Notes: generated from the sequence alone by a model not told the origin. Positions 2,552 to 32,390 are shown, counted from the stretch's first letter. The stretch: 34,859 bases of DNA from Candidatus Omnitrophota bacterium (GCA_030691985.1 JAUYDB010000186.1:1-34859); one strand, 5' to 3'. A program made the numbers and translations.

Positions 2552-2558
2552 ACGATAT

Positions 2559-7006: not shown

Positions 7007-7035
7007 TTGACAGGTTGTGATACAAGGAGTAATAA
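7007..7035 (+). promoter_or_regulatory. Sigma70-like promoter candidate for the island operon
   Basis: TTGACA (7007-7012), a 17-nt spacer, then TAATAA (7030-7035). An AAGAGGAG Shine-Dalgarno at 7074-7081 precedes ATG 7091. This is a sequence match only. Confidence 0.35.
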
Positions 7036-7090
7036 TAAGCACATATAGGTTAAGGGAAATCCAAAAGTATGGCAAGAGGAGCTTGCGGCA

Positions 7091-8710
7091 ATGGAGCCAC
7101 TGGACAAGCGCGCTATTACCGAAGAAGTAATTAATCTATTAGATAAATGGCCGAGGGCTGTTAAGGATTGGCCTCACTGGGATAAAGAGGCCAGGCAATA
7201 TCTTGGGCATTGTCTGCGTCTATATCCCAAGGGAGACGAGCGCAGACATTTTGATAAATTCAGTGAGGTTGTCTCGCTTTTGACGGCCAGAAAACAAAAC
7301 GCGACCAACAGCAAATTATTTTTGGAACATCTTGACACAGAGGACATCGCTATCGGTTTTCAGATATTTTCCAGGAAGAGGGAAGGGTATGAGCGGTGTG
7401 TAAGGGCGCGCCTGTGTGAAATCTTCAAGCGCGCGTTTAACGACGCGGAAAATCTGAAGCCGGACAATAGCGGTGAGACCAGAATTGGAAATGCGATCAA
7501 GGCTTTAGAAGAACCCGTGGATTTCGCTGACGGCCATTTCCGGGACTTGGTAAAGCATGTTCAGCTTCTTCCTGAAAAAGGCCGTGACAGGCCCAACGAT
7601 GTCCGGCACCTCGCGCGATTATGGCCTTTGGCGAAGGACCTGGAAGATATCCTTGCCGCGCCTATGGCGCTACGCAGACACGACTACATAGACCTTACCT
7701 TTGACATACTTTATTTCTCCGACGAAATAGATGAATATCGTGACGTGGTAATGGCACGCCTTGCCGATTCCTGCGTCAGTCATTGTAAGGAGATGTCGGT
7801 ATTTTGGACTTTGCAATATAGCGGCTCCACGGACAGGGATATGGTGACAGATTTCCGCAATTTAGCGGACAAGTTATTTACATCCTCCGGGCATGGCGCC
7901 GCTTCCAAAAAAACACTCGTGGGTAATCTGTCCGATTTTCAGCGGCATATGTTGATCTCGCTTAGAAAGATTTCTGAGGACATGAAACAACCTTTCGATC
8001 ATGTGTGGATAGCGAATATCCTATATGCTATTTTTGATGGCGACAAGATAAGGCAGGGCAGTTTGATCGCTGTCAGAGACATGATAGGGAACCCGGTAAT
8101 TGACCTTCAGAGATTGAAAGAAGCGCTTTTTAGAATGGCGGAATCAAGCGACGTTAAGGCGGAGGCATCGAACTATTTTTTTGAGGCGATGCGCGATTTA
8201 ATGTTGAGTGATAATGCTGATACCGGCCAGTGCGTGGAAAAAATGCCGGACGAAGCGCGGCGTTTGATAAACAAGTGCAAGGAATTTTACGATCAGGATA
8301 AAGTGGATTCTCTGGCAGCAGCATTATTGCAGAGCGTGGATAAGGATCCGGACCCTGCGGCTCGCCACGGCAGATATATAGAAAAAGCGCTCTGGCTCGC
8401 GTCTCTGTACGGAGAGAAAGAGGTTTGCCGGGAAGCAGCTTGGACTATGAGCAGGTACTATGTTCTTCAGGGAAAGACGGAAGATAAAAACTACTATTTG
8501 ATCCATACGAAAATCGTGCTCAGGTTATTACAGAGCGTGAACTATAGCCGCGACGAAGCGGATAGATTGACGCGCGATATTCAGTCCTTTTACCAGACGG
8601 ATAGCCTTCGATGCGCCGCGCCTTCGGCATTCGGGTCGGACGGGGCCGATATCGAGGAGAAGGTCAAGGAAAATGCGGCTATCTGCCGGCGTGTGATAAA
8701 ATTATTGTGA
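7091..8710 (+). CDS. Hypothetical cytoplasmic protein (539 aa), first gene of the island operon
   Basis: Long ORF with a good Shine-Dalgarno, no signal peptide and no TM segment. The composition looks helical. I recognise no motif. Confidence 0.7.
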   Translation: MEPLDKRAITEEVINLLDKWPRAVKDWPHWDKEARQYLGHCLRLYPKGDERRHFDKFSEVVSLLTARKQNATNSKLFLEHLDTEDIAIGFQIFSRKREGYERCVRARLCEIFKRAFNDAENLKPDNSGETRIGNAIKALEEPVDFADGHFRDLVKHVQLLPEKGRDRPNDVRHLARLWPLAKDLEDILAAPMALRRHDYIDLTFDILYFSDEIDEYRDVVMARLADSCVSHCKEMSVFWTLQYSGSTDRDMVTDFRNLADKLFTSSGHGAASKKTLVGNLSDFQRHMLISLRKISEDMKQPFDHVWIANILYAIFDGDKIRQGSLIAVRDMIGNPVIDLQRLKEALFRMAESSDVKAEASNYFFEAMRDLMLSDNADTGQCVEKMPDEARRLINKCKEFYDQDKVDSLAAALLQSVDKDPDPAARHGRYIEKALWLASLYGEKEVCREAAWTMSRYYVLQGKTEDKNYYLIHTKIVLRLLQSVNYSRDEADRLTRDIQSFYQTDSLRCAAPSAFGSDGADIEEKVKENAAICRRVIKLL

Positions 8711-8733
8711 TGATACAATCCAGGGACGCATAA

Positions 8734-11700
8734 ATGACTGCCAGGCGAATGGAATATCCATTGGTTTATCTTTTCCTTTCCCTCGTCCTTGGTTGTGTAA
8801 ATGCATCTGCCGCGCAGGACGACAGGCCTGGCTCAGGAATATTCGAAGGTTCTTATGATTTCGACGCCCGCGGCAGGTTGATGGCATTGACGAAGCCCGA
8901 CGGCCAGACGATTCGATATGAATACCGAGATGATGGCCTACCCATCTCTATAACCACGTCTAAAGATTCCACCCGGTTTGCGTATGATAAAAACGGCAAT
9001 TGTCTTGAGGCGGCCAACAGCGCCGGCAGGACGCGATATTCTTACGATGCGTTGAATCAGCTGACAAAAGTCTTATATGATTATCCGGTCTTGAAAAAAA
9101 GTGTTGAGTATGAATATGACCCCCAGGGTAGAACAACACGTGTATCGGTAGTGTCCGTAGCGGGCGCGGAAGAATTTTATACCTCCTATGAGTACGATAT
9201 TATCGGACGGCTTCGCAGGATAAGCAGCAATAATCAGGAGGTCGAGTATACCTATGATCCCAATGGTCATTGGGTAAAGCGTATACTGCCAAATGGAATT
9301 ATAAGCATATATAGCTATGGTGCAAATAAGTTAATCAGCACCATAGCGCACACTCGAGAGAAAGATTTACTTGCGCGATTTGAGTATAAATATGATACCG
9401 GCGGATTACTAAAAACAGCCAACGAGACACTGCTTGACAAGACCATAGGAATTCAATATCAGCATGACAGTGCCGAGCGGCTTGTCTCGGCAGTTTATTC
9501 GGATGGTCATCGTTACGTTTACGGATATGACAGTATGAGTAATCGCACATTTGTCGAATCCCCATCCGGGCGCGTTGAGGCAAAGTACGATTTGGCGGGC
9601 AGGCTAAGTACTTACGGGAAGACCGCGTTCAGATACGATGGTAACGGCAATACAGTAGCGATAGAGGAGCCGGACCGTGTGACGGGATTAGTCTATAATG
9701 CTGATAACATGGTGGAGCGGCTTGAGATCGGAAAAGAATCCCTGCGTTATGAATACAGCGCGGAAGGATTGTTGATCGGGCGCATTACCGGGGACGCGGC
9801 TACTTCATATGTTCCGGACCCGCGATTTAAAGAATGGAGACCTTTGGTGAGCGGCGATGGGATGAAATATATCTGGGCAAATGATTCAGTGATCAGTTCC
9901 ATCGGAGACAGTCAAAGTTTCTTTCTTGAGGACAGGATTGGCTCAGCGCGTTTAGTTATAAACGGAACTTTCGAGCCTCGCGCTATTTCGTACTTGCCGT
10001 TTGGGGATGCGGAGAATTTTGATAAAACAAAATCTTTTGTCCCGTTATTTGCAGGGCTTTTTTATGATCCGTTCGGGGGCTTTTATGTTACGAGTTTTAG
10101 ACCGTATAAAAGCGCCATTGGACGATTTTTGAGTTGCGAGCCGGAAAAATACAAAAGACTTTTTGGCAGCGACAGCATCGAAGCGGATTACATATATTGC
10201 AAAGATAACCCGTTGAATCTGGTGGACAGGGATGGCGCCGCTCCCTATAAGGTTGGCGGCATGACAAAATCGGAAGACGAATACTATTGGAAAAGATACA
10301 ATGAAAATATGTTTGGAGGCGCGTCCCCGACCAACGCAAGAGAGAAGACGTTGCAAGAAATAAATTTTTACCGTGACGCGAAAACATTACCGGTTTCCGA
10401 GACCATATTTAAAAACGAGATGGATATGTACCAATCGTTAGTCGCCTACCATATTAATCAGGATGGGTGGGTTCATCAGTTTAAAGCGAACGCATGGGCG
10501 CTATGGGCCAGCTTTTCCGTACATGGACTTAGCGAGGCTTCGGGATTCGGCTCCTGGGCCAGAAAAGGAGCAGTATGGTTTTCTCCGACCAGCAGCCAGA
10601 AGGAGCGCGATCTGACCACTTTGCAGGGGGGCGCTGAACTCGCGCTTCAGTTTGCATTAGCGCCTCTTATAAAGAATGTCGGGGTGAGGACAAGTGTTCG
10701 CGGTATCGATTTGTCGATGTACGGCGCTGACAAGGCAGGCATGATCGGCAGGTTTATCGAAAAAACCGGAAATGCGTTATTTGACGCAAGCTACTATGCG
10801 GTAGGGCACGCAAAGGGCCTGGCTGATGTTGTAGATTCGCTGTCGAATGCTTTTAATTTTTGGAGGACACAACAGGAGCTTAAAACACAGCAAAGATTTA
10901 ATCAGTATCCGCAAGAATTGGAATTTCGGGCCGCGAGATTGAAGACACCCGAAAAAATATCCCCCAGGGACACCACCAAGGCATATGCCGGGCCGTTTCC
11001 GCCCGATAAATTCGGCGGGGCCGGCGTGCCTACACGTGATGCGCTATCCAGTTTAGGTGACAGGTGGCAGCCTAAGGGGGTGAAGTTTGACAAATCGGCG
11101 GAGTTCTTTGGACGTATAGGCGCCATTGCGGGAGTAAATTTTGACCCAAAGACGAAGCGCCTTACCCTGATCGGTGACGGCAATCCCGAACTGCCGGCTG
11201 TGAGATTGGACGATTTCATTGCAGCGATTCAAGTTGTTTACGGCGACCACCCGGGCGAGCCGGAGGACCCGACATTTTCTCTCGATCCGGAAAATCCGGC
11301 GAATCCGGCCGGCGACTGGCTAAGGGCGGTTTACAGCCCGGGGATGCTGGCCGGCACGCATATGGGTGATGTGATGTTTAAGGCGGACTGGATGCTTAAG
11401 CAGTATGCGTTCGGTGTTATCGCCGACCAGGAAGGCAATATCATCGGTAAGCGCGTCTCTTCAGTCGGCGAATATAAGAGTTACATGGAACTTTTTAAGA
11501 GAGACCCTTCCGCCCAGAAAAAACTGGCGGAAGGCGGAGAGATATGCTCGCGTTTTTGGATCTTACCCTTAGAGATGAAACTTGCCAGATCGGGCAACAC
11601 CCTGATTTTTATCCGCTCGACTATGCAGGTGCAGACCCGGCGGATGGAATTGGTTGATGGCCAGTTAAAAGATAGCCCGGATAATTCAGATCCCGCGGCG

Positions 11701-20200: not shown

Positions 20201-22189
20201 AAACTAAGGCGATTGATACTGTTATGCCGTATGGAGACCAGCGTTTATGGTCTCGATAACGAGAAGGCGGGTTTTGGATATGAGCGCGTCAGATCGAAGT
20301 ATATGGCCCCCCTTGGAAAAGTTGACCAGACGACACTGCGGCTTGAGGAATTCCGGCTGAAAGAGGTGAATCAGCCGAACGGCCGGGAGGCCAATACCGT
20401 CCTGGAGCTTGCGCCGGTGGTGCAGCAGCTTGTCGATGTCCTGTCCAAAGATTACGACCTGATGAGGGTCCTGACAAAGGGTAAGGCTGATTCCGTTTCT
20501 CAGGCGATCCTCGCCTTGTACAAGGCCGCCAATCCTAATAACATACTCGAGGAATTAAAAGACGACCACGTCGAAACGCTATGGTTTTTAACGACAAGGT
20601 GCCGCAATGCCCTTGCCGACTCGGCGGGCCGGCTCGAGAGCTTGAGCCAGGAAGAAAAGGCGGCTACGGCGGGTATCATGTCATCGCTCTTTGTAATCTA
20701 CAGTTATTTCATGCCCTACATCGATTCCGGGTTTAACGTAGGCGCCATCTTCGATGTTAAAAACGCGCTGCCGGTATTTTGTATGCTCAATTACGATATC
20801 AAGGCGCCGGCAACGAAGCTCCTCGGTGTTTATGAGAGCTCCTGGAGCGGTATAAAAGGCGCCGTGAGGATGAGGCCGTTTGAGCTGGAGACGTTCCTGA
20901 TATGCCACAATTTCTTGCCCATATATCTTCTCGAGGCGGGCCTTAATGACTCCACGCGGTTTCTTAAATTGGTTGAGGGCAGACAGATCAGCGTCAGGGT
21001 GTATAATTTCCGATTGTTGTGGGAACGGGAAGACAGGGCGACGGTTTCTATGGAGCATCTCTGCGGCGAGATAATGGGCGGGATGGAGAATAACAAAAAT
21101 ATCCTGACGGCATCGGCCGAATTAACGGACGATGTGTACCTGGAGTATTTTTTCGGGGATATGCGGCGCGTTCTGAACAAAAAGCCCAAGTTTGAAACCC
21201 AAATGCCGCAGAATTTTGATTCTGTTGTGCAGAGATTGGCCGTGTTGCCCGAGGATGACAGGGTTGTCAGGCTTAAGAGCGATCTGGAACGAAAGATTTC
21301 TGAATTGGCCGGTTCGGCTCAGTCGGAAGAATCGGATAAGAGGAAGAAACGGTTTGAAGAGGCGCTCAACGATGTGAGCGGATTAAAAGGCAAGGTAGAT
21401 GCTGTCCTGGACAAGAGATATGAATATTTTGGAAAGGTTCTCGCGAAGCAGTTCAGATCGGTTTTTACCATCCAGAAGGCCTGCGAAGAGGCGGTCGAAC
21501 ACGTGAACCGGCGATCGCCGCGGCAGATGTTTAAAGCGATGGTTCAACCAGCCGATGAATATGCCTCATCGAGGCTTTCGGCAGAAGTGTGGCGGCGGTA
21601 TAACAAGTTCTATGAGGCGGCGCTCTTTGATGAAAAAGGAGGCTTCGCGCGTGAACTGGAAGAGCGGATGGTAAGATTGTTTTACGAACCGCCTAAAAAT
21701 AACGAAAGAAAGGCCGATTACAAGCGGTCGCGTCTTGTAAAATTTGCGCAGTTTCTTGACGGCGGTGAGATAAAGGATGAGCCCGCGAAATTGAAAGTGA
21801 CTACGGCTGGGTTTGCGGCCTGTGCCAATAAAAGCGCGGACACCCGGTCAGCCGTAGACTCAAAGTATATTGAGGCCGGCGCGCGTTTTTTAAAGTGCCT
21901 GTTTTGCGGTGAGTACATGGAGCGCGGCTATCCGTTCATCGGGGATATAGTTTGGGACAAAGACGAAAAAGGCCGGATAACTGTTAAGCCGTTACCTTAC
22001 GATGATAAGACAGGTGAAGAGGAAACGCGCGACCTGTTGAAATGGATTTTTGACTGTGGCGAGAAATACGGAAACATACCGGAGCTCAGAAAATTGTTCT
22101 TAAGGCAGGATGTTGTCATGGGAAAGCCGCAGCCGGAACCGGCGGCTCAAACCGTCCAAAACACGGAGAAAGACGAGGCGGTTGTATGA
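17231..22189 (+). CDS. Giant secreted hypothetical protein (1652 aa)
   Basis: The GTG start overlaps the upstream stop (GTGA). Signal peptide is LAAAGAFLAAVIFFSHPSVAAAGES. The ORF is uninterrupted for 5 kb. No motif recognised. Confidence 0.75.
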   Translation: MNKDTFTLRPALAAAGAFLAAVIFFSHPSVAAAGESTAHIDLKMILEDNRRDFYSERQDLLLDILRTMINQVPEGSESEDVAKWVQDFTEKGFIKGSSGEFLFADANAQLCEKFLGIVQESGCRLDRNFLRRIYERCQAGPEVIEFKYFLEPAWLNFSSNLADEETYQALSGLLDRMSGAGKMREYLMLLYYGYKTHGKHETDFDGRIDGGLLGSPSLRAEDIKDLYGVLKQDYWGSFQIKRDWMLEKAAWRLFNDFSPQDWAGKIEPSIALDLASILTMAGKTNDHDRISLVDWFKKMGACIKKSPADIPVRSLLTYFISNSGLSLRESFQALREFFADDQRMFTALHESPPDSSAMGIWNKDKENAAECMTLLDGFFQIGSAGEWDVGLWDCLRDYYYVPRPTQVRERLFNTIIKPIYESRELAANPVRKRMLREAEESKSFMLESHRYEIAHHLLTTSPMTDMAAIENKDSDTLSFAIQVFNNLAPESAELYDSDSLKKAIKSSGETMPQDKPERILRYVNFVLSEPLLLMCYAFMGKTDLTGGVAFSLDNEAQVRQFEAVLRRIVQIKGDLMQNYGRSLGRVKALEKIAEEIISKMEDAIQRKDTKQIVNLIRLTLKITVILEDDSYIDRILLSLRKDVFGVGDDPYLFVQLSGADLDAKAGYFHLLCSDDLVSALRAVGKRKYFEKFYRMLYMPLRSIYGFFNKVGAEPYLKFVSEFTEGKYDTPEDVDMNGLFDAEVESLGSIHDETGRPKYIDAEEAIASFIAGPNFEKLGIKSWNDPHRINMNKNVNLGVLYRLLNKTKVNDWAMAECPDNTRAKNYRQVAEVFIENMENPDRMDKPVSLSGQPELYSKWDFFVFVRSLVDLYEIYGYPLPVTASSSTMFTGAPEGGIKRDPLIGNINDVATRKLDGTLRASVIEKFVGAPEASQTAGSGRSEMLGETTLLLPNSDDNNAGEKTELDRYWVLKEGLFKRISSSLDDAAASADKLRRLILLCRMETSVYGLDNEKAGFGYERVRSKYMAPLGKVDQTTLRLEEFRLKEVNQPNGREANTVLELAPVVQQLVDVLSKDYDLMRVLTKGKADSVSQAILALYKAANPNNILEELKDDHVETLWFLTTRCRNALADSAGRLESLSQEEKAATAGIMSSLFVIYSYFMPYIDSGFNVGAIFDVKNALPVFCMLNYDIKAPATKLLGVYESSWSGIKGAVRMRPFELETFLICHNFLPIYLLEAGLNDSTRFLKLVEGRQISVRVYNFRLLWEREDRATVSMEHLCGEIMGGMENNKNILTASAELTDDVYLEYFFGDMRRVLNKKPKFETQMPQNFDSVVQRLAVLPEDDRVVRLKSDLERKISELAGSAQSEESDKRKKRFEEALNDVSGLKGKVDAVLDKRYEYFGKVLAKQFRSVFTIQKACEEAVEHVNRRSPRQMFKAMVQPADEYASSRLSAEVWRRYNKFYEAALFDEKGGFARELEERMVRLFYEPPKNNERKADYKRSRLVKFAQFLDGGEIKDEPAKLKVTTAGFAACANKSADTRSAVDSKYIEAGARFLKCLFCGEYMERGYPFIGDIVWDKDEKGRITVKPLPYDDKTGEEETRDLLKWIFDCGEKYGNIPELRKLFLRQDVVMGKPQPEPAAQTVQNTEKDEAVV

Positions 22190-23271
22190 CTCGATTTAAC
22201 GACATGGAGGCGTTTCTGGCTTATTTCGGCTTGGTGGCAGACTACTGGAAAAATATGGTCCGGCATGGCGCTAAAGCGGATGATTACCGGCGCATCGTGG
22301 AAAGGTTTATAGAAAAGATGGCGGAGCAAGTTGATACCTGTTTTGCCCAGGAAGCGATAGAATGGGTCGATATGCTCGAATCGGAACCTTTTAACGAGCT
22401 TGTGGATATGGAATCCGTGGCAAAGCGTTTTACTGTCAGGGTCGCGCGCGCCGTGGCGGGAGCTTCCGCCGGAAAACCCGTCGACGCTGTTGAGTGGATA
22501 CGTTTTGTAGATACGCGCAAATTTATTTATGTTCTGAAGAACAAGGCCTATTCATGGGTGGATGAATGTCTTGCGGGTGTATGCGATAGCAGGGTCTCAT
22601 CAGAAGTTGCCAGGGCCGCATACGGCGTTTTGGAAAAAACGGCGCCGCAGGACGCGCGCCGGAGTTCTTTCTGTGAAGGCCTGAATAGTCTTAAACTGCC
22701 TCCGGGGAAAAATATTTGGGAAGCGGGCTCGTTCAGAGAGGCGCTATGGGCCTGTACGATTAACGCGGCATCCTGCGCGCCAAAGATCAAGCGCTGCGCC
22801 GCGGACATATTTACAATGGTAAAGGATGACCCCCATCTTTTTGGGGTATGGGTTGGCGTTTGCGATAAATTCACATCGGAAGGTATAGGTCTTTGGGGCG
22901 GGGACGAAGGCCCTCTTCGGAAGGCGGCGGAGTATCCAACCGCCGGAACATCTCTCGATGGGGTCGCGCACGACAAAACTGGTATCAGCTCTAAAGAGAT
23001 AACCCTCATGTATTTTTATTCCCAGGATGTCCTGCTGTGCCAGCATCAGTCCCCTATAGTGAACAGGGTGACAGGCAGATTGCCCGGCGCGGTTACCGTT
23101 AGACGGCTGGACGCTGACAAAAGAGGTGATAGGCCCCTTTTTACGCGCTTCGGCGTTAAGGTGGTGCCAACACTTATTATCGCAGGTGATGGGTTGGAGC
23201 TAAAACGTTACACCGGGCTCCAGGGCGAGGAGGCTCTTGTGTCGGAGCTGAAAAAAATTGTCGAAAGGTAA
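22186..23271 (+). CDS. Cytoplasmic protein (361 aa) with a C-terminal thioredoxin-fold domain lacking the nucleophilic Cys
   Basis: ATGA overlap with the upstream gene. The C-terminal ~90 aa align by eye to thioredoxin. FYSQDVLLCQ occupies the FWAEWCGPCK position, FGVKVVPTLII matches YGIRGIPTLLLF (cis-Pro retained), and GEEALVSELKKIV matches the C-terminal helix. Confidence 0.7.
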   Translation: MTRFNDMEAFLAYFGLVADYWKNMVRHGAKADDYRRIVERFIEKMAEQVDTCFAQEAIEWVDMLESEPFNELVDMESVAKRFTVRVARAVAGASAGKPVDAVEWIRFVDTRKFIYVLKNKAYSWVDECLAGVCDSRVSSEVARAAYGVLEKTAPQDARRSSFCEGLNSLKLPPGKNIWEAGSFREALWACTINAASCAPKIKRCAADIFTMVKDDPHLFGVWVGVCDKFTSEGIGLWGGDEGPLRKAAEYPTAGTSLDGVAHDKTGISSKEITLMYFYSQDVLLCQHQSPIVNRVTGRLPGAVTVRRLDADKRGDRPLFTRFGVKVVPTLIIAGDGLELKRYTGLQGEEALVSELKKIVER

Positions 23272-24598
23272 GAGCGTGCTTACGAAAAGTATATTTTGGA
23301 CCACGATGGTGGTGTGCGTCGCGGCCTCTTTACCTTTATGTTTACGCGCGCACGCTGAGGAAAGCATGATGGACCCATGGGCAACCTCGTTCCATGATCA
23401 GGTCAAGAGGTCTAACGACGTTTACGTTAAAAATAACATTCTTGTTCACCTGGAGTCGGTTGATAAGCTCAATAAGGAGATACGCGAGGCATCGCTTTCA
23501 CGGTTTAACACCGGCCTTGACCTTGGCGACGCGAAGGAATCCGATATCGATAAAGTCATAGCTAGTCTCGTTGCGTTCCAGAAGAAGCATAACGCCCGTC
23601 TCGAAGGATGGGCGGGGAAAAATACCGCCTTCGGGAGTTTTGTCGATCCGCTTAAGATGCGCGCCGCGCAGGTGAAGAGCCTCAAGGACGCGCGTTTTCC
23701 ACAGCCATGGCCTTTTGCGGCCATACACTGGTATCCACGCGCCCGAAAATTAAAATTGGAAAACCAGGAAATACCGAAAGACGGACTCGGGTTTAAACCC
23801 GACCTGTGGCAGGACGCCGACGCCCTGACCCAGAAATACGCGTTATTCAGCTTCATGCGCAAAACCCTCAACGTCCGGCAGTTTGAAGAGGCCTTCCTTG
23901 ATGATCAAACGGGTTATAAGTCCTTTTGGAAAATCTCATCCAAGGCCATAAATTTTAAACGTTGGCGTTATCAGGATTATTACATCTACCGCTATATATC
24001 TCCATTAGGCTTGCCCGCAGCTGAAAAAGGAAACCTGAAGTTCTTTGTCCTGGTCCAATGCGCGTTATCCAGAGGAACCGATAAATTTCAGGATTTTTAC
24101 AACGCTAAACTCCGATTTTTCGCGGATTTGACGGAAGAAATGAAACGCGAAGATTGTGTGAGAATGGCCGCAAGGACTTACATGGATTTGTACGCCTTCG
24201 TATGCCGTTCGTTTCCGTGTGTCAGCGCGTTTCGGATTAAGGATGCCGCGGCGGGCGCCTCGATATATGAATTTCTGGACGGCTATCCCGGAGATAAGCC
24301 GGCGAGAATGGAGTTCGGCGAAAACTCACCGGCAGGTATCGCGTTCAGGCTGTACGAGCGGCTTAATACCTCAAGCCGCGGCTCGCAATCCCAGAGGGAG
24401 CTTACGGAACGGATATTTTCGCCGATCCTTCTTCTTCAGTTCCGGCTGCCGGCCGATTTTTCAAACAGGCTTACGGATTTCCCGTATGAAGATATCAAAG
24501 TGGGTTTCAAGGGCTACCTCGATTTTTATGATGCGCTTACCGCGCCCGGCCCGGTTTTCGGCAAAAAGGCATGGACGATAAAAGGAATTTTCAGGTGA
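23258..24598 (+). CDS. Secreted hypothetical protein (446 aa; TTG start, alternative GTG at 23276)
   Basis: Signal peptide FWTTMVVCVAASLPLCLRAHA-EES. It is coupled to the neighbouring genes. No motif recognised. Confidence 0.7.
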   Translation: MSKGKSVLTKSIFWTTMVVCVAASLPLCLRAHAEESMMDPWATSFHDQVKRSNDVYVKNNILVHLESVDKLNKEIREASLSRFNTGLDLGDAKESDIDKVIASLVAFQKKHNARLEGWAGKNTAFGSFVDPLKMRAAQVKSLKDARFPQPWPFAAIHWYPRARKLKLENQEIPKDGLGFKPDLWQDADALTQKYALFSFMRKTLNVRQFEEAFLDDQTGYKSFWKISSKAINFKRWRYQDYYIYRYISPLGLPAAEKGNLKFFVLVQCALSRGTDKFQDFYNAKLRFFADLTEEMKREDCVRMAARTYMDLYAFVCRSFPCVSAFRIKDAAAGASIYEFLDGYPGDKPARMEFGENSPAGIAFRLYERLNTSSRGSQSQRELTERIFSPILLLQFRLPADFSNRLTDFPYEDIKVGFKGYLDFYDALTAPGPVFGKKAWTIKGIFR

Positions 24599-27303
24599 AG
24601 ATCAGAGCCACAATCAGCGTTTTTACATCTCTTATTTTTTTGTCCGTCCTTATCGGCATATTTTCGATATTTGTGTTTCAGAAGTCGTTTTTGCCTTTGT
24701 CGGGCCCGGGTGAAAACGGCAAAGGCTGGGCCGATGATGTCATGACTTTTTATGAATCGGCGTCCGAGAAGACTCTTGAGGAGGCTTATCGCTCAAACGT
24801 CAAACGCATAGAAATCCGTCCCCAGGAAAATTCAAGCCGCTATCACTGCGCCAGCCCGTGCAACGAAGGCCTGGCGGGCGCGGTAGTTAAGAAGCTTTAT
24901 AATGGCCGGTCTGAAAAGATTCCCGAGGTTTTGTTTTGGCGTGAGCCGTTATTTGCGAGCTCATCCTGCCGTGGGATTCTTTATTTTTGCAATTGGCTGA
25001 CCGCGAATCTGCGCTTTCTTTCCCCGCAAAAAGGCAAAGGCACGCCGGGCCCTTGCTCTATGGGATTATTCAGGATGCGCCCTGACGGCAGGGCGGAACC
25101 GGCAAAGGAACTTACAAGCCAACCAACACTCTACCTGACTATAGAGATCAGCGATGTAAAGATGCATGCCGGGCAAAATACCTTTAAAGCGGAGTTTTGT
25201 CTGCGCGCCGATGACGGGGATCCGAAAAAAGGCGCGGTTATTTTGAAAGAGTCCTATAAAGGGGCGACCACGCAAATCTTCTGGTTCATCAGGCAAAAAT
25301 GCCCCGGATGGTTCATGTTTGTGAATATCGTACTGATCTTCATGCTTTCCGGTTTTCTTTTTTGGTTTCGGAACCTGCCATATCCCGCCGTCAAGATAGG
25401 CCTCCTCTGCTGTATGCTGGGGCAGATCTATGTCATGGCGCTTTTATTATTATCTCCAATTCCGCGGGAGCAGCTGCAGTTTTTTCATGACCAGACGAAA
25501 ATTTTCTATCTGGTTGATATAAACAGCGAGATCAGATTCGCGCCCGAAAGGTCTGATGGGCAAAAGGCCGGTCCCGATTATCTCGCCAGGCGCCTTGAGG
25601 AGAGGATCAGCGAGCGCGTCGTGGGCCAAAAACCCGGCGAGCTAATGGCGTTCTGGAGATGGTTATGGTCGCGATACAGCATAGGAGCGATTTACCGGCC
25701 GCGCAGGTTTGAGCTGAATCGTCCGTGTGTCATGGACAAATATGAGTTTTCCGGGTTTGAAAAGGATGGGTGGAATTACCTGGGGGTTGTATCCAGGGGA
25801 ATGGAGGACAGCGGTAATTTTACAGCCTCAAACAATGCCTCTATCCTGCGTGAGGCACGCTTAGTTAAGCCGCAAACCGAGCTCAAAAATGCCCTGAAAC
25901 GCGAAGCGCAGGAAAGCGCGAACGGTTCGGCGATGAATCTTGCGCTTGTACTGACAAGCGCGAGCACATCATCTTATAAAGACGTGCTTGAGTTTATGGA
26001 GCCTGCCGAGGCCGCGGCAAGGGATGGCCGTGACCTTCGGGTATTTACTATTTTGGTTCCTTCGATACCGACAACCGGCGCAGACAAATTTTATGATTTC
26101 GAGAACGGGAAAGCCGCGCTCATATCTCTGGAGTCGGACTATATCCTTCCGCTGAACAGCCGCGCATATAAAGCGGATGAACTGGAATCCTTATTAAGAA
26201 AACATGGGATAGAACGTAAGAGCCGCGCCGGAGGCGAACCACAAGTTATTAATCTGCGTTCCGGCCTATATGATATTCCTAATATCAGCGTTGAGGATAA
26301 GGACTATTGGGATACGCCGCGCGACCTTGGTGAATTAAGGCAAAAATACCTGTTTGTTGGGCGGGAGAAAATTGACGCGGCCTGTGACGAGATTGTGAAT
26401 ATACTCAAAGATATGCTCAGCCGCGGATTCGACAATGCGGAGAGACTCATATTTATCCATGTGATCGGCCGTATACCCGTCTTCTGGCTTGCTGTTATAG
26501 CGCTCGCGTCCTACATATTCGGTTTTTTCGCTTTCATCGGCCAATGTAATCCTGTCTTCTTCCGCGAGTTCGAACATGACCCCGCTGTAAGGATTGGCCA
26601 CTATGCCGCGGTGGCGCTCTCCGTAGCGAGCATGGTATTATTCGTTTTCGGAGTGGTCTGGCGCGCGCAGAACCCCGAAGTATGGACGGACTTCGGCGAC
26701 CCCCGCTGGGCTCTCGCGGTCGGTATACTCTGCTGGTTGTCATGGTTTGTAGCGCCGTTCGCATACTTCAAGGTGAGGGGAATAAATGGCCTGAAGGGTG
26801 AAGGGCTTGGCCCGGCGCCGGCCAGATATTGGGCGCTTTCTGTCTGCATGGCAGGCCTAGCGGCCATTTATGCCTCATTCCGGTATATACCGGAAGGCGG
26901 TTTAACCGGATCGAACCTGTTTTGGAAGTTCTGGCTTACATTTTTGCTCGTCAGCCTGACTATCTTCTCGGGACTCATAGCGCCGAAAGGCGATAAGAGT
27001 GTATATGGCGGGATGGGGCATATAGAGTGGTGGCGCAATCCATGGTGGAGCTTCCTTGTTAAGACGCTTCTTATAATGGGGATAATAATACTATTCCGCG
27101 GGGCGTTTCCCGCGACACCAAGCGGATGGAAGGGTATGACGGGCCTGTTTTCGTCGTTCCATCGTTTCGTGTTGACGATAACCATCTTTTGGTCTATAAT
27201 CGGCTTTGCGATTGCCCTTACCGCTAAGCCGATAAGGTTGACATACTGGCTTGGCCCAGCTATCACTGTTGTCGCCAGCCTTGCTCTATTCCTGGGAGGT
27301 TAA
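24571..27303 (+). CDS. Polytopic inner-membrane protein (910 aa; alternative GTG start at 24595 gives a GTGA overlap)
   Basis: One N-terminal TM segment, a ~200-aa soluble region, two TM segments around aa 245-300, a ~330-aa soluble region, then about 8 C-terminal TM segments (for example VFWLAVIALASYIFGFFAFIG, WALAVGILCWLSWFVAPFAYF, FVLTITIFWSIIGFAIALTA). No family recognised. Confidence 0.75.
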   Translation: MDDKRNFQVKIRATISVFTSLIFLSVLIGIFSIFVFQKSFLPLSGPGENGKGWADDVMTFYESASEKTLEEAYRSNVKRIEIRPQENSSRYHCASPCNEGLAGAVVKKLYNGRSEKIPEVLFWREPLFASSSCRGILYFCNWLTANLRFLSPQKGKGTPGPCSMGLFRMRPDGRAEPAKELTSQPTLYLTIEISDVKMHAGQNTFKAEFCLRADDGDPKKGAVILKESYKGATTQIFWFIRQKCPGWFMFVNIVLIFMLSGFLFWFRNLPYPAVKIGLLCCMLGQIYVMALLLLSPIPREQLQFFHDQTKIFYLVDINSEIRFAPERSDGQKAGPDYLARRLEERISERVVGQKPGELMAFWRWLWSRYSIGAIYRPRRFELNRPCVMDKYEFSGFEKDGWNYLGVVSRGMEDSGNFTASNNASILREARLVKPQTELKNALKREAQESANGSAMNLALVLTSASTSSYKDVLEFMEPAEAAARDGRDLRVFTILVPSIPTTGADKFYDFENGKAALISLESDYILPLNSRAYKADELESLLRKHGIERKSRAGGEPQVINLRSGLYDIPNISVEDKDYWDTPRDLGELRQKYLFVGREKIDAACDEIVNILKDMLSRGFDNAERLIFIHVIGRIPVFWLAVIALASYIFGFFAFIGQCNPVFFREFEHDPAVRIGHYAAVALSVASMVLFVFGVVWRAQNPEVWTDFGDPRWALAVGILCWLSWFVAPFAYFKVRGINGLKGEGLGPAPARYWALSVCMAGLAAIYASFRYIPEGGLTGSNLFWKFWLTFLLVSLTIFSGLIAPKGDKSVYGGMGHIEWWRNPWWSFLVKTLLIMGIIILFRGAFPATPSGWKGMTGLFSSFHRFVLTITIFWSIIGFAIALTAKPIRLTYWLGPAITVVASLALFLGG

Positions 27304-27306
27304 TAT

Positions 27307-29094
27307 ATGCCATTGAGTCCGAAAAAGATATCCCTGAAAGATGCCTGTGAAGCCCTTCAACTCAATTACGAAAATTTTATATCTCTCCTGAAAGATCATG
27401 ATTCCGACGATCCTGTGTCGGCGTCCGGTGCCGGCATCGACGACCTGACCGACCGGGAAGAGGATGCCATACGCGGGAATATTCACAGGGCTAATGAAAG
27501 CTGGCTCATTACATCCATACTGGGCAGGCTGGATATGGACGATCTGAAATTTGAGGGTGATATCACGTCAAAAGATGCCCGGATACTGGACAACATCGCC
27601 GCATCTTCCGGAAAGAGTGAAAGAAGATTGCTCGGGGAGATTTTACGAGGGGCTCAATCAAAAGTGAAGGATGACCTTGAGAATGAATTCAAGAGGAGGA
27701 TAAAAGGGCAGGACGAGCTTGTCCATTCGCTTCTGATAGCGCTTGTGCTCAATGAGCATTGCCTGCTCGAGGGGCTTCCGGGAGTGGGAAAGACCGAAAT
27801 TGTGAAATGGATAGCGAATGTTACGGGGCTGCCTTTCAGCAGAGTGCAGTTCATCCCCGACATGCTGCCGTCGGATCTGATCGGCAAGGATCATATTGAT
27901 ATATTGAAACTCAACGCGCGCGATCCGAACGCGATCAGTTGGGCAAACGGCCCGATATTTACCAGCATACTGCTCGCGGACGAGATAAACCGCGCCCCGT
28001 CGAAGGTCCAGGCGGCGCTCCTGGAGTCGATGGGTGAAAAGCAGGTTACGCCGTTCGGTAAGATGTCCATGCCGGTATTAAGTCCGCTTCACCAGGCCGC
28101 TCTGGAATTATGGCCCTTGAAATTTCCCGAACTTTTTTCCAAAGCCAAGGCCGAACCCCGCGGATTGATCGGCATGCCCGTTATCCCCGCCCACAGGAAG
28201 GATCTTGCGCAATTTACCGTATTTGCCACAATGGATCCCATAGAACAGGAAGGCACCTATCCGCTTTCAGAGGCGCAGACCGACAGATTCTGTTTTAAAG
28301 TAATCGTCCCTTATCCGCCGAGGGACAGTTATCTGGATATATTGGAAGTGGTATATAGCGGGGAAAAACCTCCTGAGGCGATTGAGCTTAATATGTCTGT
28401 ATTGAAATGCAGGCGGTACTTTGAAAAATACCCGCGCCACATGATCCCCGTTTTACTTCCTCTTTACTTTTTACTGAAGTGCCGCGCCGAAATCCTGCCT
28501 GTCAGGATCGGTAAAGATGAGTGGATGCGCGATAGGCCGTCTAAAAAGTCGGGCGGAAGTTCTGCGGACGATCTCGTGGTAGGCGATCCCCTTTTCTTCT
28601 CCGTCGCGGAAGATCTTGCCGGCAAGTCACCCGATCTGCGTATGAGCCGCACGGAGAGCGGCATATTGCAAAAGATTCACGATGTGGTCTACACGACAAA
28701 CGCCCGCACTATCGGCGCGGGCGAGACACAGGGCGCGCGGCTTTGGTATGATAAAGAGCAGATTGAGATGCGCCAGTACATCTTTGAACAGGAAAGATCC
28801 GGCCGGGACACAAAACGCAAAGAGAGGCTTTCTCGCGTCCTTGAAGAAGAACATTGCCAGTATGTAAAAGCCGGTGGCAGTCCCCGCGCCTTTCTGAAGC
28901 TGGTCGCGGCTTCGCTCTGCCAGGCGTTTCTTGACAGCCGCGACAAAATAGATGAAGAGGATGTCATCAAGGTTATTGACAATGTTCTTCGGCACCGTAT
29001 ACACATGGATGTTCACGCGCGCATGGCCGGCATATCCCCCGAAGACGTTATACACAAGGTTTGCGAGCGTATCCTAAGCCCTGATAATAGGTAA
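27307..29094 (+). CDS. MoxR-family AAA+ ATPase, atypically long (595 aa)
   Basis: Walker A GLPGVGKT (27772-27795) and the MoxR signature FSRVQFIPDMLPSDLIG are present. Walker B ILLADEINRAPSKVQAALLESMGEKQVT, FATMDPIEQEGTYPLSEAQTDRF and the lid motif GGSPRAF...EEDVIKVIDNVLRHRI are also present. Confidence 0.88.
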   Translation: MPLSPKKISLKDACEALQLNYENFISLLKDHDSDDPVSASGAGIDDLTDREEDAIRGNIHRANESWLITSILGRLDMDDLKFEGDITSKDARILDNIAASSGKSERRLLGEILRGAQSKVKDDLENEFKRRIKGQDELVHSLLIALVLNEHCLLEGLPGVGKTEIVKWIANVTGLPFSRVQFIPDMLPSDLIGKDHIDILKLNARDPNAISWANGPIFTSILLADEINRAPSKVQAALLESMGEKQVTPFGKMSMPVLSPLHQAALELWPLKFPELFSKAKAEPRGLIGMPVIPAHRKDLAQFTVFATMDPIEQEGTYPLSEAQTDRFCFKVIVPYPPRDSYLDILEVVYSGEKPPEAIELNMSVLKCRRYFEKYPRHMIPVLLPLYFLLKCRAEILPVRIGKDEWMRDRPSKKSGGSSADDLVVGDPLFFSVAEDLAGKSPDLRMSRTESGILQKIHDVVYTTNARTIGAGETQGARLWYDKEQIEMRQYIFEQERSGRDTKRKERLSRVLEEEHCQYVKAGGSPRAFLKLVAASLCQAFLDSRDKIDEEDVIKVIDNVLRHRIHMDVHARMAGISPEDVIHKVCERILSPDNR

Positions 29095-29127
29095 TAAGGA
29101 AGGCCCCCGCGAGGAAGTTAGAGAGCG

Positions 29128-30234
29128 ATGCCATATACGGAAAGCCTTAAGGCCGTTAACAAGGAGGTTTTAAGGCGTATAAACCGCGAAGTTTCGGTGA
29201 GGGCGTCGCGTTTCGCCAATGCGCTGCTCTCCGGCGTATTCCGCGCGATATTTCAGATTGAAAAGGCGTATGAATTCGCCGAGCCCGCCATTTTTCAGCC
29301 GGAACATGAACCTGACAGGATGCTCTTAAACCGGTTAGACGGATACCGCTTGTCCAACCTGCCTATGGCGATAGCAAACGAAGATGTGCTGGTCTCCCGA
29401 TATCAACTCTTTACAGAATACGATTTTGTCGTAGTGGCCGATGTCAGCCAGTCGATGATGTTGTACTGGTGGGGCATATACGGCGGAGATCCTATGCCCG
29501 GCCATACCGCAGAGGAACTTACCGCCGATGTGGAGGCTCATAAGTGGAAGATCCCCGGTGACAGGACAAAGCTTTTTTTGCTCAAATATACGCTGGCCTC
29601 TTTCCTGCATGCGGCAAGGGCGAACGAATTTTTTTCGTACGTCCTGCTCGCCGGAGACAGCAAGATAGAGCTCTATGATTCCCGCAGGGAGCCGAATCTC
29701 GAAGAGACTCTTTTAAGGAACATAGACGAGCATTATGGAAAGCTTGTCACTAAAGGCGGGGAGGAGAGGCCTCAGCTGCAGGAGGCCCTGCGCCAGGTGC
29801 TTGCGAGGCGCCGCCGCGCGATAGTGCTTTGTATATCGGATTTTAATGACTGTCTTCAGCACATAAATGATAAGGGCGGCGCGCGCCTTTCGCAGAATGA
29901 CATAATACTTCCGCTTGCCGAGATATCATCCCGCCACCGCCTGCTCGTTCTTCAGATAAATCACCGCCTTGAGCACGAGCCGCAGGCTGGTGAGGCGACT
30001 TTTGATGTCAAAAATTGCCCGTATTTGAACGGCGAAATACGTTCGGAGCAAAGAGGCTATGCGGTGAGTGATAGGGATCTGGTCTTATACGGAGAGAAAG
30101 TTGATGCGTGGAAAAAAACGCTCGGTGTGAATTTCGGCAAATTCGGCATAAAATGGCAGAGCCTCAGGGCAGGTAAGGACGACGAAAACGTGGATACGAG
30201 GATTTACGAACTCGGCGTCCAGACAGGGAGATGA
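29128..30234 (+). CDS. DUF58-like / vWA-fold protein, MoxR partner (368 aa)
   Basis: It sits immediately downstream of the MoxR gene, the canonical pairing. A MIDAS-like DxSxS motif (VVVADVSQSM, ~29428-29457) and a later AIVLCISDF strand are typical of DUF58. The usual N-terminal RxYxxGD motif is not evident. Confidence 0.55.
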   Translation: MPYTESLKAVNKEVLRRINREVSVRASRFANALLSGVFRAIFQIEKAYEFAEPAIFQPEHEPDRMLLNRLDGYRLSNLPMAIANEDVLVSRYQLFTEYDFVVVADVSQSMMLYWWGIYGGDPMPGHTAEELTADVEAHKWKIPGDRTKLFLLKYTLASFLHAARANEFFSYVLLAGDSKIELYDSRREPNLEETLLRNIDEHYGKLVTKGGEERPQLQEALRQVLARRRRAIVLCISDFNDCLQHINDKGGARLSQNDIILPLAEISSRHRLLVLQINHRLEHEPQAGEATFDVKNCPYLNGEIRSEQRGYAVSDRDLVLYGEKVDAWKKTLGVNFGKFGIKWQSLRAGKDDENVDTRIYELGVQTGR

Positions 30235-30238
30235 AGAT

Positions 30239-31489
30239 ATGTTCAAGATAGTAAATCAGGATATCCTTCTTCGGCTGAAACTTACTATGGATAGAAAGTC
30301 CTACAGCGTTGTAAATATCTGCGGGGCGCAGGATGCGGGCCAGATCGTTCTTAAGCTGAGATCTGACGAAGGCGGCGGTCTCGCAACCTCTGTTTTTCTT
30401 GCCGACGCGGCAGAGAAGTATTCCGTAGACAACACGGGAAAGACGCTCGGCCAATGGCTTGATGAGGAATTTTTGGGCGCTGAAAGCTGTTTGGAAAACA
30501 TCGTTGATGCGTATGCCGATGCGGACGGCGCGCCGCGTTTGGCCGGAGGTGATGGGATGGCGCAGGCATCGAAGACACGCGCCCTGCTTAATCTGGGAGC
30601 GATCCGGACTCTGGGCAATCGATCAAGAGACGAGGTATTATCCCATCTGAAATCATGGCTGGATGCGGATCGGCATATGTGGCAGACGCGGAAGGTTGGC
30701 ATGGACAAGGAAGCCAGGTCAGAATCGATAGATATAATAGTGATGCCGACAGCGAGATTGGAGGGATTGTTTCTTGAACTTAAAAAAGCAAGGGCAGAGG
30801 CCGAGGCGCGTTCGGTCTCTTTGGATGGGGTCAGTATAAGATTTGAGCCTTTTCTCTGCCGCGCCCTTGAAAGGCATTGGACGGAGGTCTTGAGAGGAGT
30901 TGATATTATTCGCGCTATGGGACGGTCTGACAGCGGCGGAATGCGGGTAGATGCGCAAATCCGGGAGGCAAGCCCGCCTGCGGACATTGCTCATAGTAAG
31001 ATTAATATCGCAAGGACATTCAAACACGGCAAAAAAGACGCAGTTTCCGAAAGCGCGGAACCCAGGAAAATCCGGATTTCCGCCGTAACGGACGGGTATA
31101 AAACAGATATTGCGATAGAGTTATTCTTTTCGGTGGCTGCGAGCAAAACGTTCGCGGCCAGAATTATCACTCATTGCGGTATATCGCGTCTGAACCCTAA
31201 AAAGATTGTAAAACAACTGAAGGCTGGGCTTGAAGGGTATCTTAGCGATATGCAGTGGGCGCTGGATAAGTATTTTAAGGATAACATGATGAGCGTCGCG
31301 TCGTACAGGGGTATGGTATTTCAGGATATCGATGAGTTTAAAAAATGGCTGGGAGCGTCGTCAAACGCGGATGATTATAAAATATGCCGGCTCGGTTCGG
31401 CTGAGCAGAAAGGCGGGCCCCGTATCTTAAGCCGTGAAAATCCAGCCGATATTATAGCCGAGTGGCTTCAGGGCATTGCGGCCGATTAA
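30239..31489 (+). CDS. Hypothetical cytoplasmic protein (416 aa)
   Basis: Starts 4 nt after the upstream stop. No signal peptide or TM segment. No motif recognised. Confidence 0.65.
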   Translation: MFKIVNQDILLRLKLTMDRKSYSVVNICGAQDAGQIVLKLRSDEGGGLATSVFLADAAEKYSVDNTGKTLGQWLDEEFLGAESCLENIVDAYADADGAPRLAGGDGMAQASKTRALLNLGAIRTLGNRSRDEVLSHLKSWLDADRHMWQTRKVGMDKEARSESIDIIVMPTARLEGLFLELKKARAEAEARSVSLDGVSIRFEPFLCRALERHWTEVLRGVDIIRAMGRSDSGGMRVDAQIREASPPADIAHSKINIARTFKHGKKDAVSESAEPRKIRISAVTDGYKTDIAIELFFSVAASKTFAARIITHCGISRLNPKKIVKQLKAGLEGYLSDMQWALDKYFKDNMMSVASYRGMVFQDIDEFKKWLGASSNADDYKICRLGSAEQKGGPRILSRENPADIIAEWLQGIAAD

Positions 31490-31503
31490 TCGAGGAGGAG
31501 AGC

Positions 31504-31638
31504 ATGGAAGGTGTAAAAGTTTTGAGGAGCACTCAGATTATAATCTTAGGCATCTGCGTCGCGTTTGCAGCGATTATCTCCAGCGTGATAATTTCGAAGG
31601 GGAACAGAAGATGTAAACAAAGCGGCGATAATGAATGA
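31504..31638 (+). CDS. Small single-TM membrane peptide (44 aa), not in the supplied ORF track
   Basis: Translated by hand as MEGVKVLRSTQIIILGICVAFAAIISSVIISKGNRRCKQSGDNE. A strong Shine-Dalgarno GAGGAGGAG (31492-31500) lies just upstream of the ATG. The stop overlaps the next ORF start by 8 nt. Confidence 0.55.
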   Translation: MEGVKVLRSTQIIILGICVAFAAIISSVIISKGNRRCKQSGDNE

Positions 31639-32047
31639 TATTAAAAGAATTTCTGCGGTTGCAATTATAATTAATTTTATAGCGCTATTCTCAAGCCATG
31701 CTCAGCCAAATATTCCCCGAGAGAACATTCCGAAGGACGCTTCTGTTGAAATAAGGAAAGAGATTGAAAAGTTATATTCTCCCGATGCCATAGAAAGAGC
31801 CGAGGCAGCTATTCACCTTGGATGGATGGGGAGCAAGGCGGCTCCGGCCATACCATTCCTAAAGGCGATGTTGAACGATAACGCCCCCATAGAGTGGGAA
31901 TACGTCGATATCCCGAGATCCGAGATACCGTTATATAAACCATTCACACCCGGCGAAGAGGCGAAAAGCGCGGTAGAATCAATGCTTAAAGAGATACCAG
32001 GGCAAGATCTCGGACCCAGCCAAACGGCAGGAGTGGCGGGAGACTAA
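31631..32047 (+). CDS. Small secreted HEAT-repeat protein (138 aa)
   Basis: Signal peptide AVAIIINFIALFSSHA-QP. A HEAT/PBS-lyase-like repeat is present (PDAIERAEAAIHLGWMGSKAAPAIPFLKAMLNDNAP). Confidence 0.65.
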   Translation: MNDIKRISAVAIIINFIALFSSHAQPNIPRENIPKDASVEIRKEIEKLYSPDAIERAEAAIHLGWMGSKAAPAIPFLKAMLNDNAPIEWEYVDIPRSEIPLYKPFTPGEEAKSAVESMLKEIPGQDLGPSQTAGVAGD

Positions 32048-32315: not shown

Positions 32316-32337
32316 AAAATGGGGGACACCCATTTTA
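32313..32337 (+). terminator. Copy C of the AAAATGGG-GGACA-CCCATTTT hairpin, directly after the orphaned MFS stop codon
   Basis: 24 nt identical to 165-188. The position fits the ancestral terminator of the MFS gene. Confidence 0.45.
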
Positions 32338-32390
32338 CTTTCGGAAGATTGAAGTTGATTTTATGCCTTTATCGTGATATTTTACGGACT

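Follow-up and report, generated by a model that had tools for sequence, protein, structure and literature searches.

We analysed a 34,859-bp contig of a Candidatus Omnitrophota metagenome-assembled genome (MAG; GCA_030691985.1, JAUYDB010000186.1), taken in its entirety and hereafter called the window, and found that ten adjacent genes on its + strand, named g01–g10, are one co-inherited unit. The unit combines a long AAA+ ATPase of the MoxR family (g08) and a von Willebrand factor A (vWA) protein treated as DUF58-type (g09) with the giant g02, g03 and g04 and the smaller g06, which carry predicted Sec-type signal peptides, a polytopic membrane protein (g07) and three predicted cytoplasmic accessory proteins (g01, g05 and g10). 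We propose that g01–g10 form a self-contained cell-envelope module in which the MoxR/vWA pair would assist the biogenesis of an exported megacomplex anchored on g07, a reading to which we give a probability of roughly 45%. A first-pass annotation of the window had suggested an undescribed MoxR/vWA-linked envelope system; that central claim stands with corrections, as the system comprises ten genes rather than twelve, its members are not orphans and it lacks the toxin and Hint hallmarks that had been ascribed to it.

Conserved gene order in ten other genomic contexts

A search for homologues of g08 revealed a distinct subfamily of long MoxRs (460–550 residues), which are 40–54% identical with more than 80% of the query aligned; ordinary MoxRs of 330 residues align to only ~40% of the g08 query. 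Eight of the long MoxRs were examined on their own contigs and each was surrounded by an identical order of like-sized genes; in every neighbourhood examined, the subfamily sits in the same cluster and with the same partners only. Ten other genomic contexts, spanning 38–65% GC and designated here by L numbers, hold cluster genes in the same order. At L017, which is the complete upstream stretch of the L011 contig, g01–g10 are collinear (10 of the 12 window genes), with g02–g09 in order and a weak g10 relative (E = 4e-5) at the locus end, and at L007 homologues of g02 and g03 precede that of g04. The distant variants L013, L014 and L016 retain g04, g06, g07, MoxR and vWA, and a g03 relative is also retained in L013 and L016; at L015, g04, MoxR and vWA alone are detectable, with open reading frames (ORFs) of matching size between them. 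The core of g04, g06, g07, MoxR and vWA persists in most variants, distant ones included. Direct comparison with the neighbours of the long MoxRs gave identities to the window proteins of 37–40% for g04 over its full length, 31–40% for g06, 27–33% for g07, 44–54% for g09, 23–28% for the N-domain of g05 and 22–29% for g10. Homologues of the 539-, 1375-, 1652-, 446-, 910- and 416-residue proteins, which the first-pass annotation had described as orphans and put forward for a co-localisation check, are clearly syntenic with a long MoxR, a DUF58/vWA protein and a YD-repeat protein in other genomes.

In addition to the gene order, two kinds of fusion tie the components together. g04 and g06 form one protein of 2021 residues in L013 and one of 1857 residues in L016, and in a 1117-residue protein of L013 a g05-like domain stands behind a g10-type N-domain. 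The neighbouring genes on either side of the cluster change from locus to locus, which makes the cluster itself the conserved unit; they belong to ordinary housekeeping or metabolic neighbourhoods. One could suppose that a Bat-like MoxR/DUF58 operon lies beside unrelated large genes by chance, because MoxR–DUF58 pairs are generally known to be common as stand-alone modules and a promoter-like match precedes the MoxR gene inside the window cluster (27172–27200). This is highly improbable in view of the collinear order in ten other contexts of widely ranging GC content, the two kinds of fusion, and the long MoxR subfamily that keeps to these partners; on the grounds of the synteny and the fusions, we regard chance juxtaposition as excluded.

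In the window, twelve + strand ORFs (g01–g12) are packed at 7091–32047, and the ORF map places every large ORF of the window on this strand. Their junctions from g01 to g12 (+23, -22, -4, -4, -14, -28, +3, +33, +4, +14 and -8 nt) and their coordinates are as first reported. The single promoter-like site that had been described upstream is a real match (11/12) at 7007, but it is not unique, as the one at 27172–27200 is equally good and, judged by its sequence, could be an internal promoter for g08–g10. Within the operon, promoter-like matches number 27 against 20.6 ± 5.8 by chance and terminator-like matches 19 against 23.1 ± 5.0, both at chance level. Since these matches are at chance level and the 7007 site has an equal, the tight junctions rather than a promoter are the real argument for co-transcription.

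The g04 family is small. A HMMER search with g04 residues 453–1652 against 1.84 billion representative proteins yielded 25 proteins at E ≤ 1e-3 and 13 at E ≤ 1e-30, and every database copy of a cluster protein that is named at its source bears the name ‘hypothetical protein’; g07 is listed at NCBI as ‘MAG: hypothetical protein Q8N91_04390’. The genome-contig scan gave no match with the g04 profile and one locus, L010, with the g09 profile, the metagenome scan gave one organism group only (L007–L009), and a search with the concatenated g04, g06 and g07 profile returned four g04 proteins and nothing else. Pattern scans of viral contigs with g04, g07 and g09 recovered no relatives, within the limits of a pattern scan. 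The word-prefiltered search missed all 27–40% identical g07 relatives and most g04 relatives, which HMMER and neighbourhood comparison recovered; hence the single-sequence g07 search that returned g07 alone reflects the prefilter and not absence, as relatives at 27–33% identity exist.

One of the ten contexts (L010) is a Brocadiia (anammox) MAG, Candidatus Subterrananammoxibius californiae, and the carriers named Brocadiia are L010, P0015 and P0126 only. At L005, a neighbouring gene for an 869-residue protein (17562–20171) matches Pfam HZS_alpha (hydrazine synthase α) on a contig of 62% GC, unlike known anammox genomes. An assignment of L005/L007 to an anammox genome from this match was dropped because the contigs have 62% GC. 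The L005 carrier is widespread, with P0008 found on 80 contigs.

Exported proteins and the membrane protein g07

Hydropathy profiles place an N-terminal hydrophobic segment in g02 (1464 residues), g03 (1375), g04 (1652), g06 (446) and g12 (138), about 10–11 transmembrane (TM) segments in g07 (910) and one in g11 (44), while g01 (539), g05 (361), g08 (595), g09 (368) and g10 (416) have none. This agrees with the five secreted, two membrane and five cytoplasmic products predicted by the first-pass annotation. The signal peptides of g02, g03, g04 and g06 recur in most homologues that have a credible start codon. No Pfam or NCBIfam match was found for g01, g03, g04, g06, g07 or g10, and no Pfam match for g12; seven of the ten protein families of the unit are without a Pfam or NCBIfam entry, and a PDB sequence search of four of these was also empty. 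PDB sequence searches with the g04, g06, g07, g09 and g10 profiles gave no match.

The full-length homologues of g04 lie in L002, L004, L007, L011/L017 and L012, and the protein is also detected in L013, L014, L015 and L016. AlphaFold2 modelling of residues 400–1599 from a 17-sequence alignment gave a nearly all-helical structure with few hairpins, at a predicted local distance difference test score (pLDDT) of 83.2 and a predicted template modelling score (pTM) of 0.69; from a 4-sequence alignment the model was unusable (pLDDT 51). Foldseek comparison of the model with the PDB returned generic giant solenoids only (Blm10, CAND1, karyopherins), with template modelling scores of 0.1–0.2 and ~10% identity. 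The helical model and these generic matches together indicate that g04 is an exported α-solenoid without a specific relative, and on the strength of the model we are confident of its all-α solenoid, scaffold-type fold. Its likeness to the eukaryotic-type giant α-solenoids (Blm10/PA200, CAND1, karyopherins) is thus a resemblance of fold class and not homology and, unlike them, g04 has a signal peptide. g06 occupies the same position in 7/10 other contexts, with the L014 copy found by profile, and has no Pfam or PDB match among 10 family members.

The membrane protein g07 begins with TM1 (residues 17–35) and continues with soluble domain A (36–247, ~210 residues), a TM hairpin (248–294) with a short and basic loop, soluble domain B (295–625, ~330 residues) and 7–8 C-terminal TM segments. 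This topology is unchanged in distant homologues, and in L016 the N-terminal TM segment is a cleavable-looking signal peptide. In the closer loci the protein keeps its position, and it is also detected in L013, L014 and L016. By the positive-inside rule, both soluble domains would be periplasmic. No Pfam match was found in 10 members of the family and no match in the PDB, and comparison of domain B with the g09 vWA profile was negative (hhalign probability 0.2%).

The YD repeats of g02 are genuine, and the calls of YD/RHS, thioredoxin-like and MoxR proteins in the first-pass annotation are borne out by Pfam (Table 1 and below). g02 resembles RHS/YD polymorphic toxins, the BC cocoons of Tc toxins and teneurins in these repeats, and its PDB profile matches, to Rhs proteins of type VI secretion systems (T6SS) and to teneurins, are limited to the YD region. 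The cluster might accordingly be a locus for polymorphic toxins or contact-dependent competition, where g02, and g03 via Hint-like self-cleavage, would deliver a C-terminal toxin with the MoxR/vWA pair aiding its loading or release; the repeats and their profile matches would fit, as would an Rhs_assc_core match (TIGR03696) at g02 residues 420–501 and a Hint-like pattern seen by eye in g03 (C at ~858, FANGILV at ~1035). However, the core match just passes (34.2 bits; cutoff 32.5), the window sequence has degenerate versions, CEPEK and VDRDG, of both DPxGL motifs, and the match is absent from the g02 orthologues of L007 and L017; from its sequence, the Rhs-associated core is degenerate and specific to one lineage. 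In g02, a conserved non-YD domain (residues 779–1083) separates an N-terminal from a C-terminal block of YD repeats; it is the best-conserved stretch of the protein (>60% identity) and is followed by more YD-like repeats. While the L007 and L017 orthologues are 28–29% identical at the N-terminus, they reach 43–47% over residues 769–1462. The C-terminal part of ~700 residues, where a toxin would have its variable tip, is therefore the most conserved part of the protein, which argues that g02 is not a polymorphic toxin. Hint, PT-HINT and intein profiles of Pfam matched none of three g03 family members at E ≤ 10. Neither the window nor the flanks of the related loci yielded PAAR, VgrG, T6SS, Tc or CdiB genes, the ORF map holds no small immunity-like ORF, as had been noted before, and the 22-nt overlap of g03 with g02 leaves no immunity ORF after g02. 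The toxin-locus reading fails three of four defining features and we consider it very improbable.

Full-length orthologues of g03 are present in L007 (39%) and L017 (37%), with partial ones in L002 and L013 and a shorter relative of 872 residues in L016. Hidden paralogy between g03 and g04 was looked for by profile–profile comparison, with a negative result. A 119-residue ORF with an N-terminal TM segment lies between g02 and g03 in L017 (5106–5465) and has a weak counterpart in L007 (4694–5627; 33% identity over 33 residues, E = 0.15). This small ORF is a feature of the high-GC versions and does not occur in the window, where g02 and g03 overlap.

The MoxR–vWA pair, accessory genes and flanking DNA

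g08 scores 143.3 bits with AAA_3 (cutoff 27) and 42.4 bits with AAA_lid_2 (cutoff 22.7). It shares with the canonical 330-residue MoxRs the Walker A motif GLPGVGKT (156–163), the Walker B DE (225–226, in LLADEINRA) and the sensor-2 motif G-x-SPR (523–527), and differs from them in being extended at the N-terminus and in having two insertions, one that follows the Walker-B/helix-2 region and one of ~170 residues that precedes the lid. With these motifs intact, the ATPase is apparently active. g09 begins 33 nt after g08 and the pairing recurs in the related loci, in L002 with one g10-like gene between the two. The metal-ion-dependent adhesion site (MIDAS) of g09, D105-x-S107-x-S109, is invariant in 4 orthologues. 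The DUF58 match of this 368-residue window protein is weak (E = 0.008) and below the cutoff (15.8 against 23.4 bits); of four orthologues, three match Pfam DUF58 (best E 2.4e-6) and two match VWA_CoxE at the MIDAS motif. More divergent copies are found by profile in L013–L016. On this sequence evidence, we treat g09 as a divergent DUF58/vWA protein.

Since MoxR and vWA proteins also occur together in conflict systems, we weighed whether the cluster could be an NTP (nucleoside triphosphate)-dependent conflict or anti-phage defence system, akin to the MoxR–vWA–β-propeller ternary systems (Kaur et al. 2020, PMC7159879) or other AAA+ defence systems. The cluster shares with the ternary systems a MoxR and a vWA protein within a larger conserved multi-gene system of patchy phyletic spread, and it is itself rare and patchy across phyla. 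g08 also passes the Pfam bpMoxR profile narrowly (28 bits; cutoff 27), and PADLOC 2.0 gave weak matches to its ATPase core, IetA and DolB, at E = 6e-5 to 2e-4, and none for the other nine proteins. However, g08 fits AAA_3 far better than bpMoxR, none of the products has a WD40/β-propeller, VMAP, effector-associated or nuclease domain by Pfam, and the partners are exported: four Sec-exported giants and a polytopic membrane protein are atypical of cytoplasmic sensing systems. The neighbourhoods are of housekeeping or metabolic type, not defence islands, and the viral contig scans described above found no copy, within their limits. Taken together, a defence role appears quite improbable.

Of the three accessory families, g01 has a counterpart in L017, a 553-residue protein that aligns at its C-terminus to g01 residues 360–536 (27% identity, E = 2e-13) and whose gene shares 4 nt with that of the g02 homologue; profile–profile comparison of g01 with g05 and with g10 showed no relation. 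The N-domain of g05 is kept at the same position in 7/10 other contexts. The thioredoxin domain at the g05 C-terminus (residues 268–361, window 22987–23271) occurs only in the window protein and is missing from all orthologues; its Pfam match (residues 268–356) has E = 1e-7 and 32.2 bits against a cutoff of 23.5, and the active site, C-Q-H-Q, has one Cys where CxxC would have two. Relatives of g10 lie directly 3′ of the MoxR/vWA pair in L002, L004, L005/7, L010, L011 and L012, as three paralogues in a row in L005 and L012 and as a fusion to tetratricopeptide repeats (TPR) in L004. In L002 (11622–16069), the vWA gene is separated from MoxR by a g10-like gene, and another of this kind (782 residues) comes after. 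The N-domain of g10 (~95 residues, MFxxIN..LLxLRL) also heads downstream proteins of L013 and L016, and profile–profile comparison of g10 with g05 linked the two only through the shared N-domain in the L013 fusion.

For the last two ORFs of the packed array, g11 and g12, none of the related loci has a counterpart, and the genes 3′ of g10 differ at every locus; on this comparison g11 and g12 are probably outside the system, so that g01–g10 remain of the twelve-gene unit first described. Upstream of the cluster, the window contains tRNA-Arg, a TolC–MacA–MacB efflux operon, an alpha/beta hydrolase and an MFS_3 transporter, and downstream dnaX and recR. The tRNA-Arg gene (anticodon TCG) lies at 79–155, the extreme start of the contig. 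The efflux operon (280–4517) consists of genes for a TolC-like OEP, an HlyD/MacA-like adaptor and a MacB-type ABC transporter, and stands beside the cluster in no related locus. The longest dnaX ORF (32319–34741) has a 24-residue N-terminal extension; the conserved part begins MSYIVFARKYRP (~32391), which leaves ~340 nt of non-coding DNA 3′ of g12, and an Rfam search of this gap between g12 and dnaX found no RNA. dnaX and recR share 4 nt, and ybaB does not occur between them.

Table 1. Genes and promoter-like matches of the window, with the basis of each call.
Feature	Position	Strand	Basis
σ70-like promoter match 5′ of g01	7007..7036	+	TTGACA-18-AATAAT, 11/12, consensus match only
g01, 539-aa predicted cytoplasmic protein, new family	7091..8710	+	No Pfam/NCBIfam match, no TM segment
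g02, 1464-aa predicted exported YD-repeat protein	8734..13128	+	RHS_repeat E 1e-27, YD_repeat_2x E 2e-18, N-terminal hydrophobic segment
g03, 1375-aa predicted exported giant protein, new family	13107..17234	+	Signal-peptide-like N-terminus; no Pfam, NCBIfam or PADLOC match
g04, 1652-aa predicted exported giant α-solenoid, system hallmark	17231..22189	+	Homologues and AlphaFold model
g05, 361-aa predicted cytoplasmic protein	22186..23271	+	Conserved N-domain aa 1-235; window-specific thioredoxin-fold C-domain
g06, 446-aa predicted exported protein, new family, g04 partner	23258..24598	+	Synteny, fusion to g04 C-terminus
g07, 910-aa polytopic membrane protein, presumed membrane hub	24571..27303	+	Hydropathy, synteny
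Second promoter-like match, inside the g07 3′ end, 107 nt before the MoxR start	27172-27200		TTGACG-17-TATAAT, 11/12
g08, 595-aa long MoxR AAA+ ATPase, AAA_3 type	27307..29094	+	AAA_3 E 5e-42, AAA_lid_2 E 6e-11
g09, 368-aa divergent DUF58/vWA protein, intact MIDAS	29128..30234	+	Motif, Pfam matches of family members
g10, 416-aa predicted cytoplasmic protein, new family	30239..31489	+	1-3 paralogues per locus
g11, 44-aa single-TM ORF	31504..31638	+	ORF and hydropathy
g12, 138-aa predicted exported protein, HEAT-like repeat	31631..32047	+	No family match

A proposed envelope machine and its relation to known systems

In the envelope module that we propose, the solenoid g04 with its partner g06, the second giant g03 and the YD protein g02 would be exported by their Sec-type signal peptides and, since the cluster encodes no outer-membrane or secretion component, would most likely remain periplasmic. 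g07, with its two large, predicted periplasmic domains and its C-terminal bundle of 7–8 helices, would be the anchor or assembly platform on which they are complexed. On the cytoplasmic side, g08 would be a specialised MoxR AAA+ hexamer and g09 its vWA/DUF58 adaptor, which would bind an acidic residue of the client through its MIDAS site. Together with the accessories g01, g05 and g10, the pair may carry out an ATP-driven remodelling of the cytoplasmic face of g07, or of the giant precursors before export, and this step would drive or license the assembly of the exported megacomplex. MoxR ATPases with vWA partners remodel their targets in NorQ/NorD, for example (PMC13036017, PMC9976466). The exported giants are 37–47% identical and the cytoplasmic accessories 22–29%; this better conservation of the exported proteins is what one would expect of internal machinery under constraint, more than of surface antigens or toxins.

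Several points weigh against this reading. The localisation calls come from a hydropathy scan and from N-termini inspected by eye, with no trained predictor. The g04 model spans 1200 of 1652 residues, and an α-solenoid fold is silent on final function. With both soluble domains of g07 placed in the periplasm by prediction, a contact with the MoxR/vWA pair would need the short loops. The assisted assembly or export itself is drawn from gene content, topology and analogy.

In another arrangement of the same parts, the MoxR/vWA pair and g01, g05 and g10 would act as a dedicated pre-export chaperone system that holds or unfolds the giant Sec substrates in the cytoplasm and passes them to the translocon or to g07, which would then be an export or insertion device, with the exported proteins independent of one another. 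Three cytoplasmic accessory families face three exported units, g01 adjoining g02 and g05 adjoining g04, and all cytoplasmic parts are without TM segments. A precedent for such a route is found in M. tuberculosis, where MoxR1 is described as required for RipA secretion (PMC4810496). On the other hand, the fusion of g04 with g06 and the strict co-inheritance with g07 speak for a complex formed after export, the number of g10 copies varies from 1 to 3 while the exported proteins show no corresponding change, and g07 has no similarity to any known translocase. We regard such a dedicated pre-export role as unlikely.

The closest kind of system is the operon in which a MoxR of AAA_3 type is combined with DUF58 and membrane proteins, as in the Bacteroides Bat aerotolerance operon, mxaR-S-A-C-K-L for methanol dehydrogenase maturation, and Rv1479–Rv1481 of M. 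tuberculosis. As in these, an AAA_3 MoxR is directly followed by a protein, here a divergent one, of putative DUF58/vWA type beside a polytopic membrane protein, and the apparent clients are extracytoplasmic. Unlike these operons, the cluster is without BatA/BatB-type TM-vWA proteins, a BatC TPR protein and BatD, g07 is of a new family, g08 carries its N-terminal extension and two large insertions, and seven conserved families are added, three of which are giant exported proteins. BatA, VWA, BatD and TPR had no Pfam match at E ≤ 0.01 in the products scanned (all but g11), in keeping with the absence of BatA–D in the first-pass annotation. NorQ/NorD, CbbQ/CbbO and RavA/ViaA have known enzymes as clients, namely cNOR, Rubisco and respiratory complexes. 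The pairing of a MoxR with a MIDAS vWA adaptor, which in those systems serves to remodel one dedicated client (PMC13036017, PMC9976466), may be a model for g08/g09. In contrast to those, the candidate clients here are new, giant, exported and non-enzyme-like, and the vWA protein is DUF58-like.

No product maps to a Bat operon, a T6SS, a Tc toxin or a PADLOC defence system, as the first-pass annotation had anticipated in finding no fit to known systems. In the literature on MoxR with anammox, Omnitrophota, Planctomycetes, DUF58 and YD repeat, and in the preprints on giant genes of Omnitrophota, a description of the cluster was not found; for a Kuenenia MoxR mentioned in PMC12053348, no link to the cluster could be made. 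In summary, the cluster is an undescribed, rare variation on the MoxR–vWA operon theme. It may even be a new type of bacterial envelope machine, in which a periplasmic megacomplex of g04/g06, g03 and a split YD shell of g02 stands on the 10–11-TM g07, and a specialised MoxR–vWA motor with its own adaptors assembles or actuates it from across the inner membrane. Such a machine would be shared horizontally among Omnitrophota, anammox Planctomycetota and other uncultivated lineages, with a role in envelope architecture, cell–cell interaction or compartment biogenesis that would have no described counterpart; this fuller picture is a tentative one, and we would sooner expect parts of it to fail than all of it to hold.

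Omnitrophota are nanobacteria and the anammox Brocadiia are compartmentalised, and the envelopes of both are poorly understood. Anammox bacteria are available in enrichment culture, and experiments on the system could become feasible if one of these cultures contained a related Brocadiia carrier. To our knowledge, MoxR–vWA pairs are widespread while only a handful of their clients are known, most of them metalloenzymes. In the cluster, this kind of motor is tied to a new membrane protein and to a set of giant, scaffold-like proteins that are exported and, if the envelope-module reading is true, the MoxR theme would extend to the building of large envelope structures.

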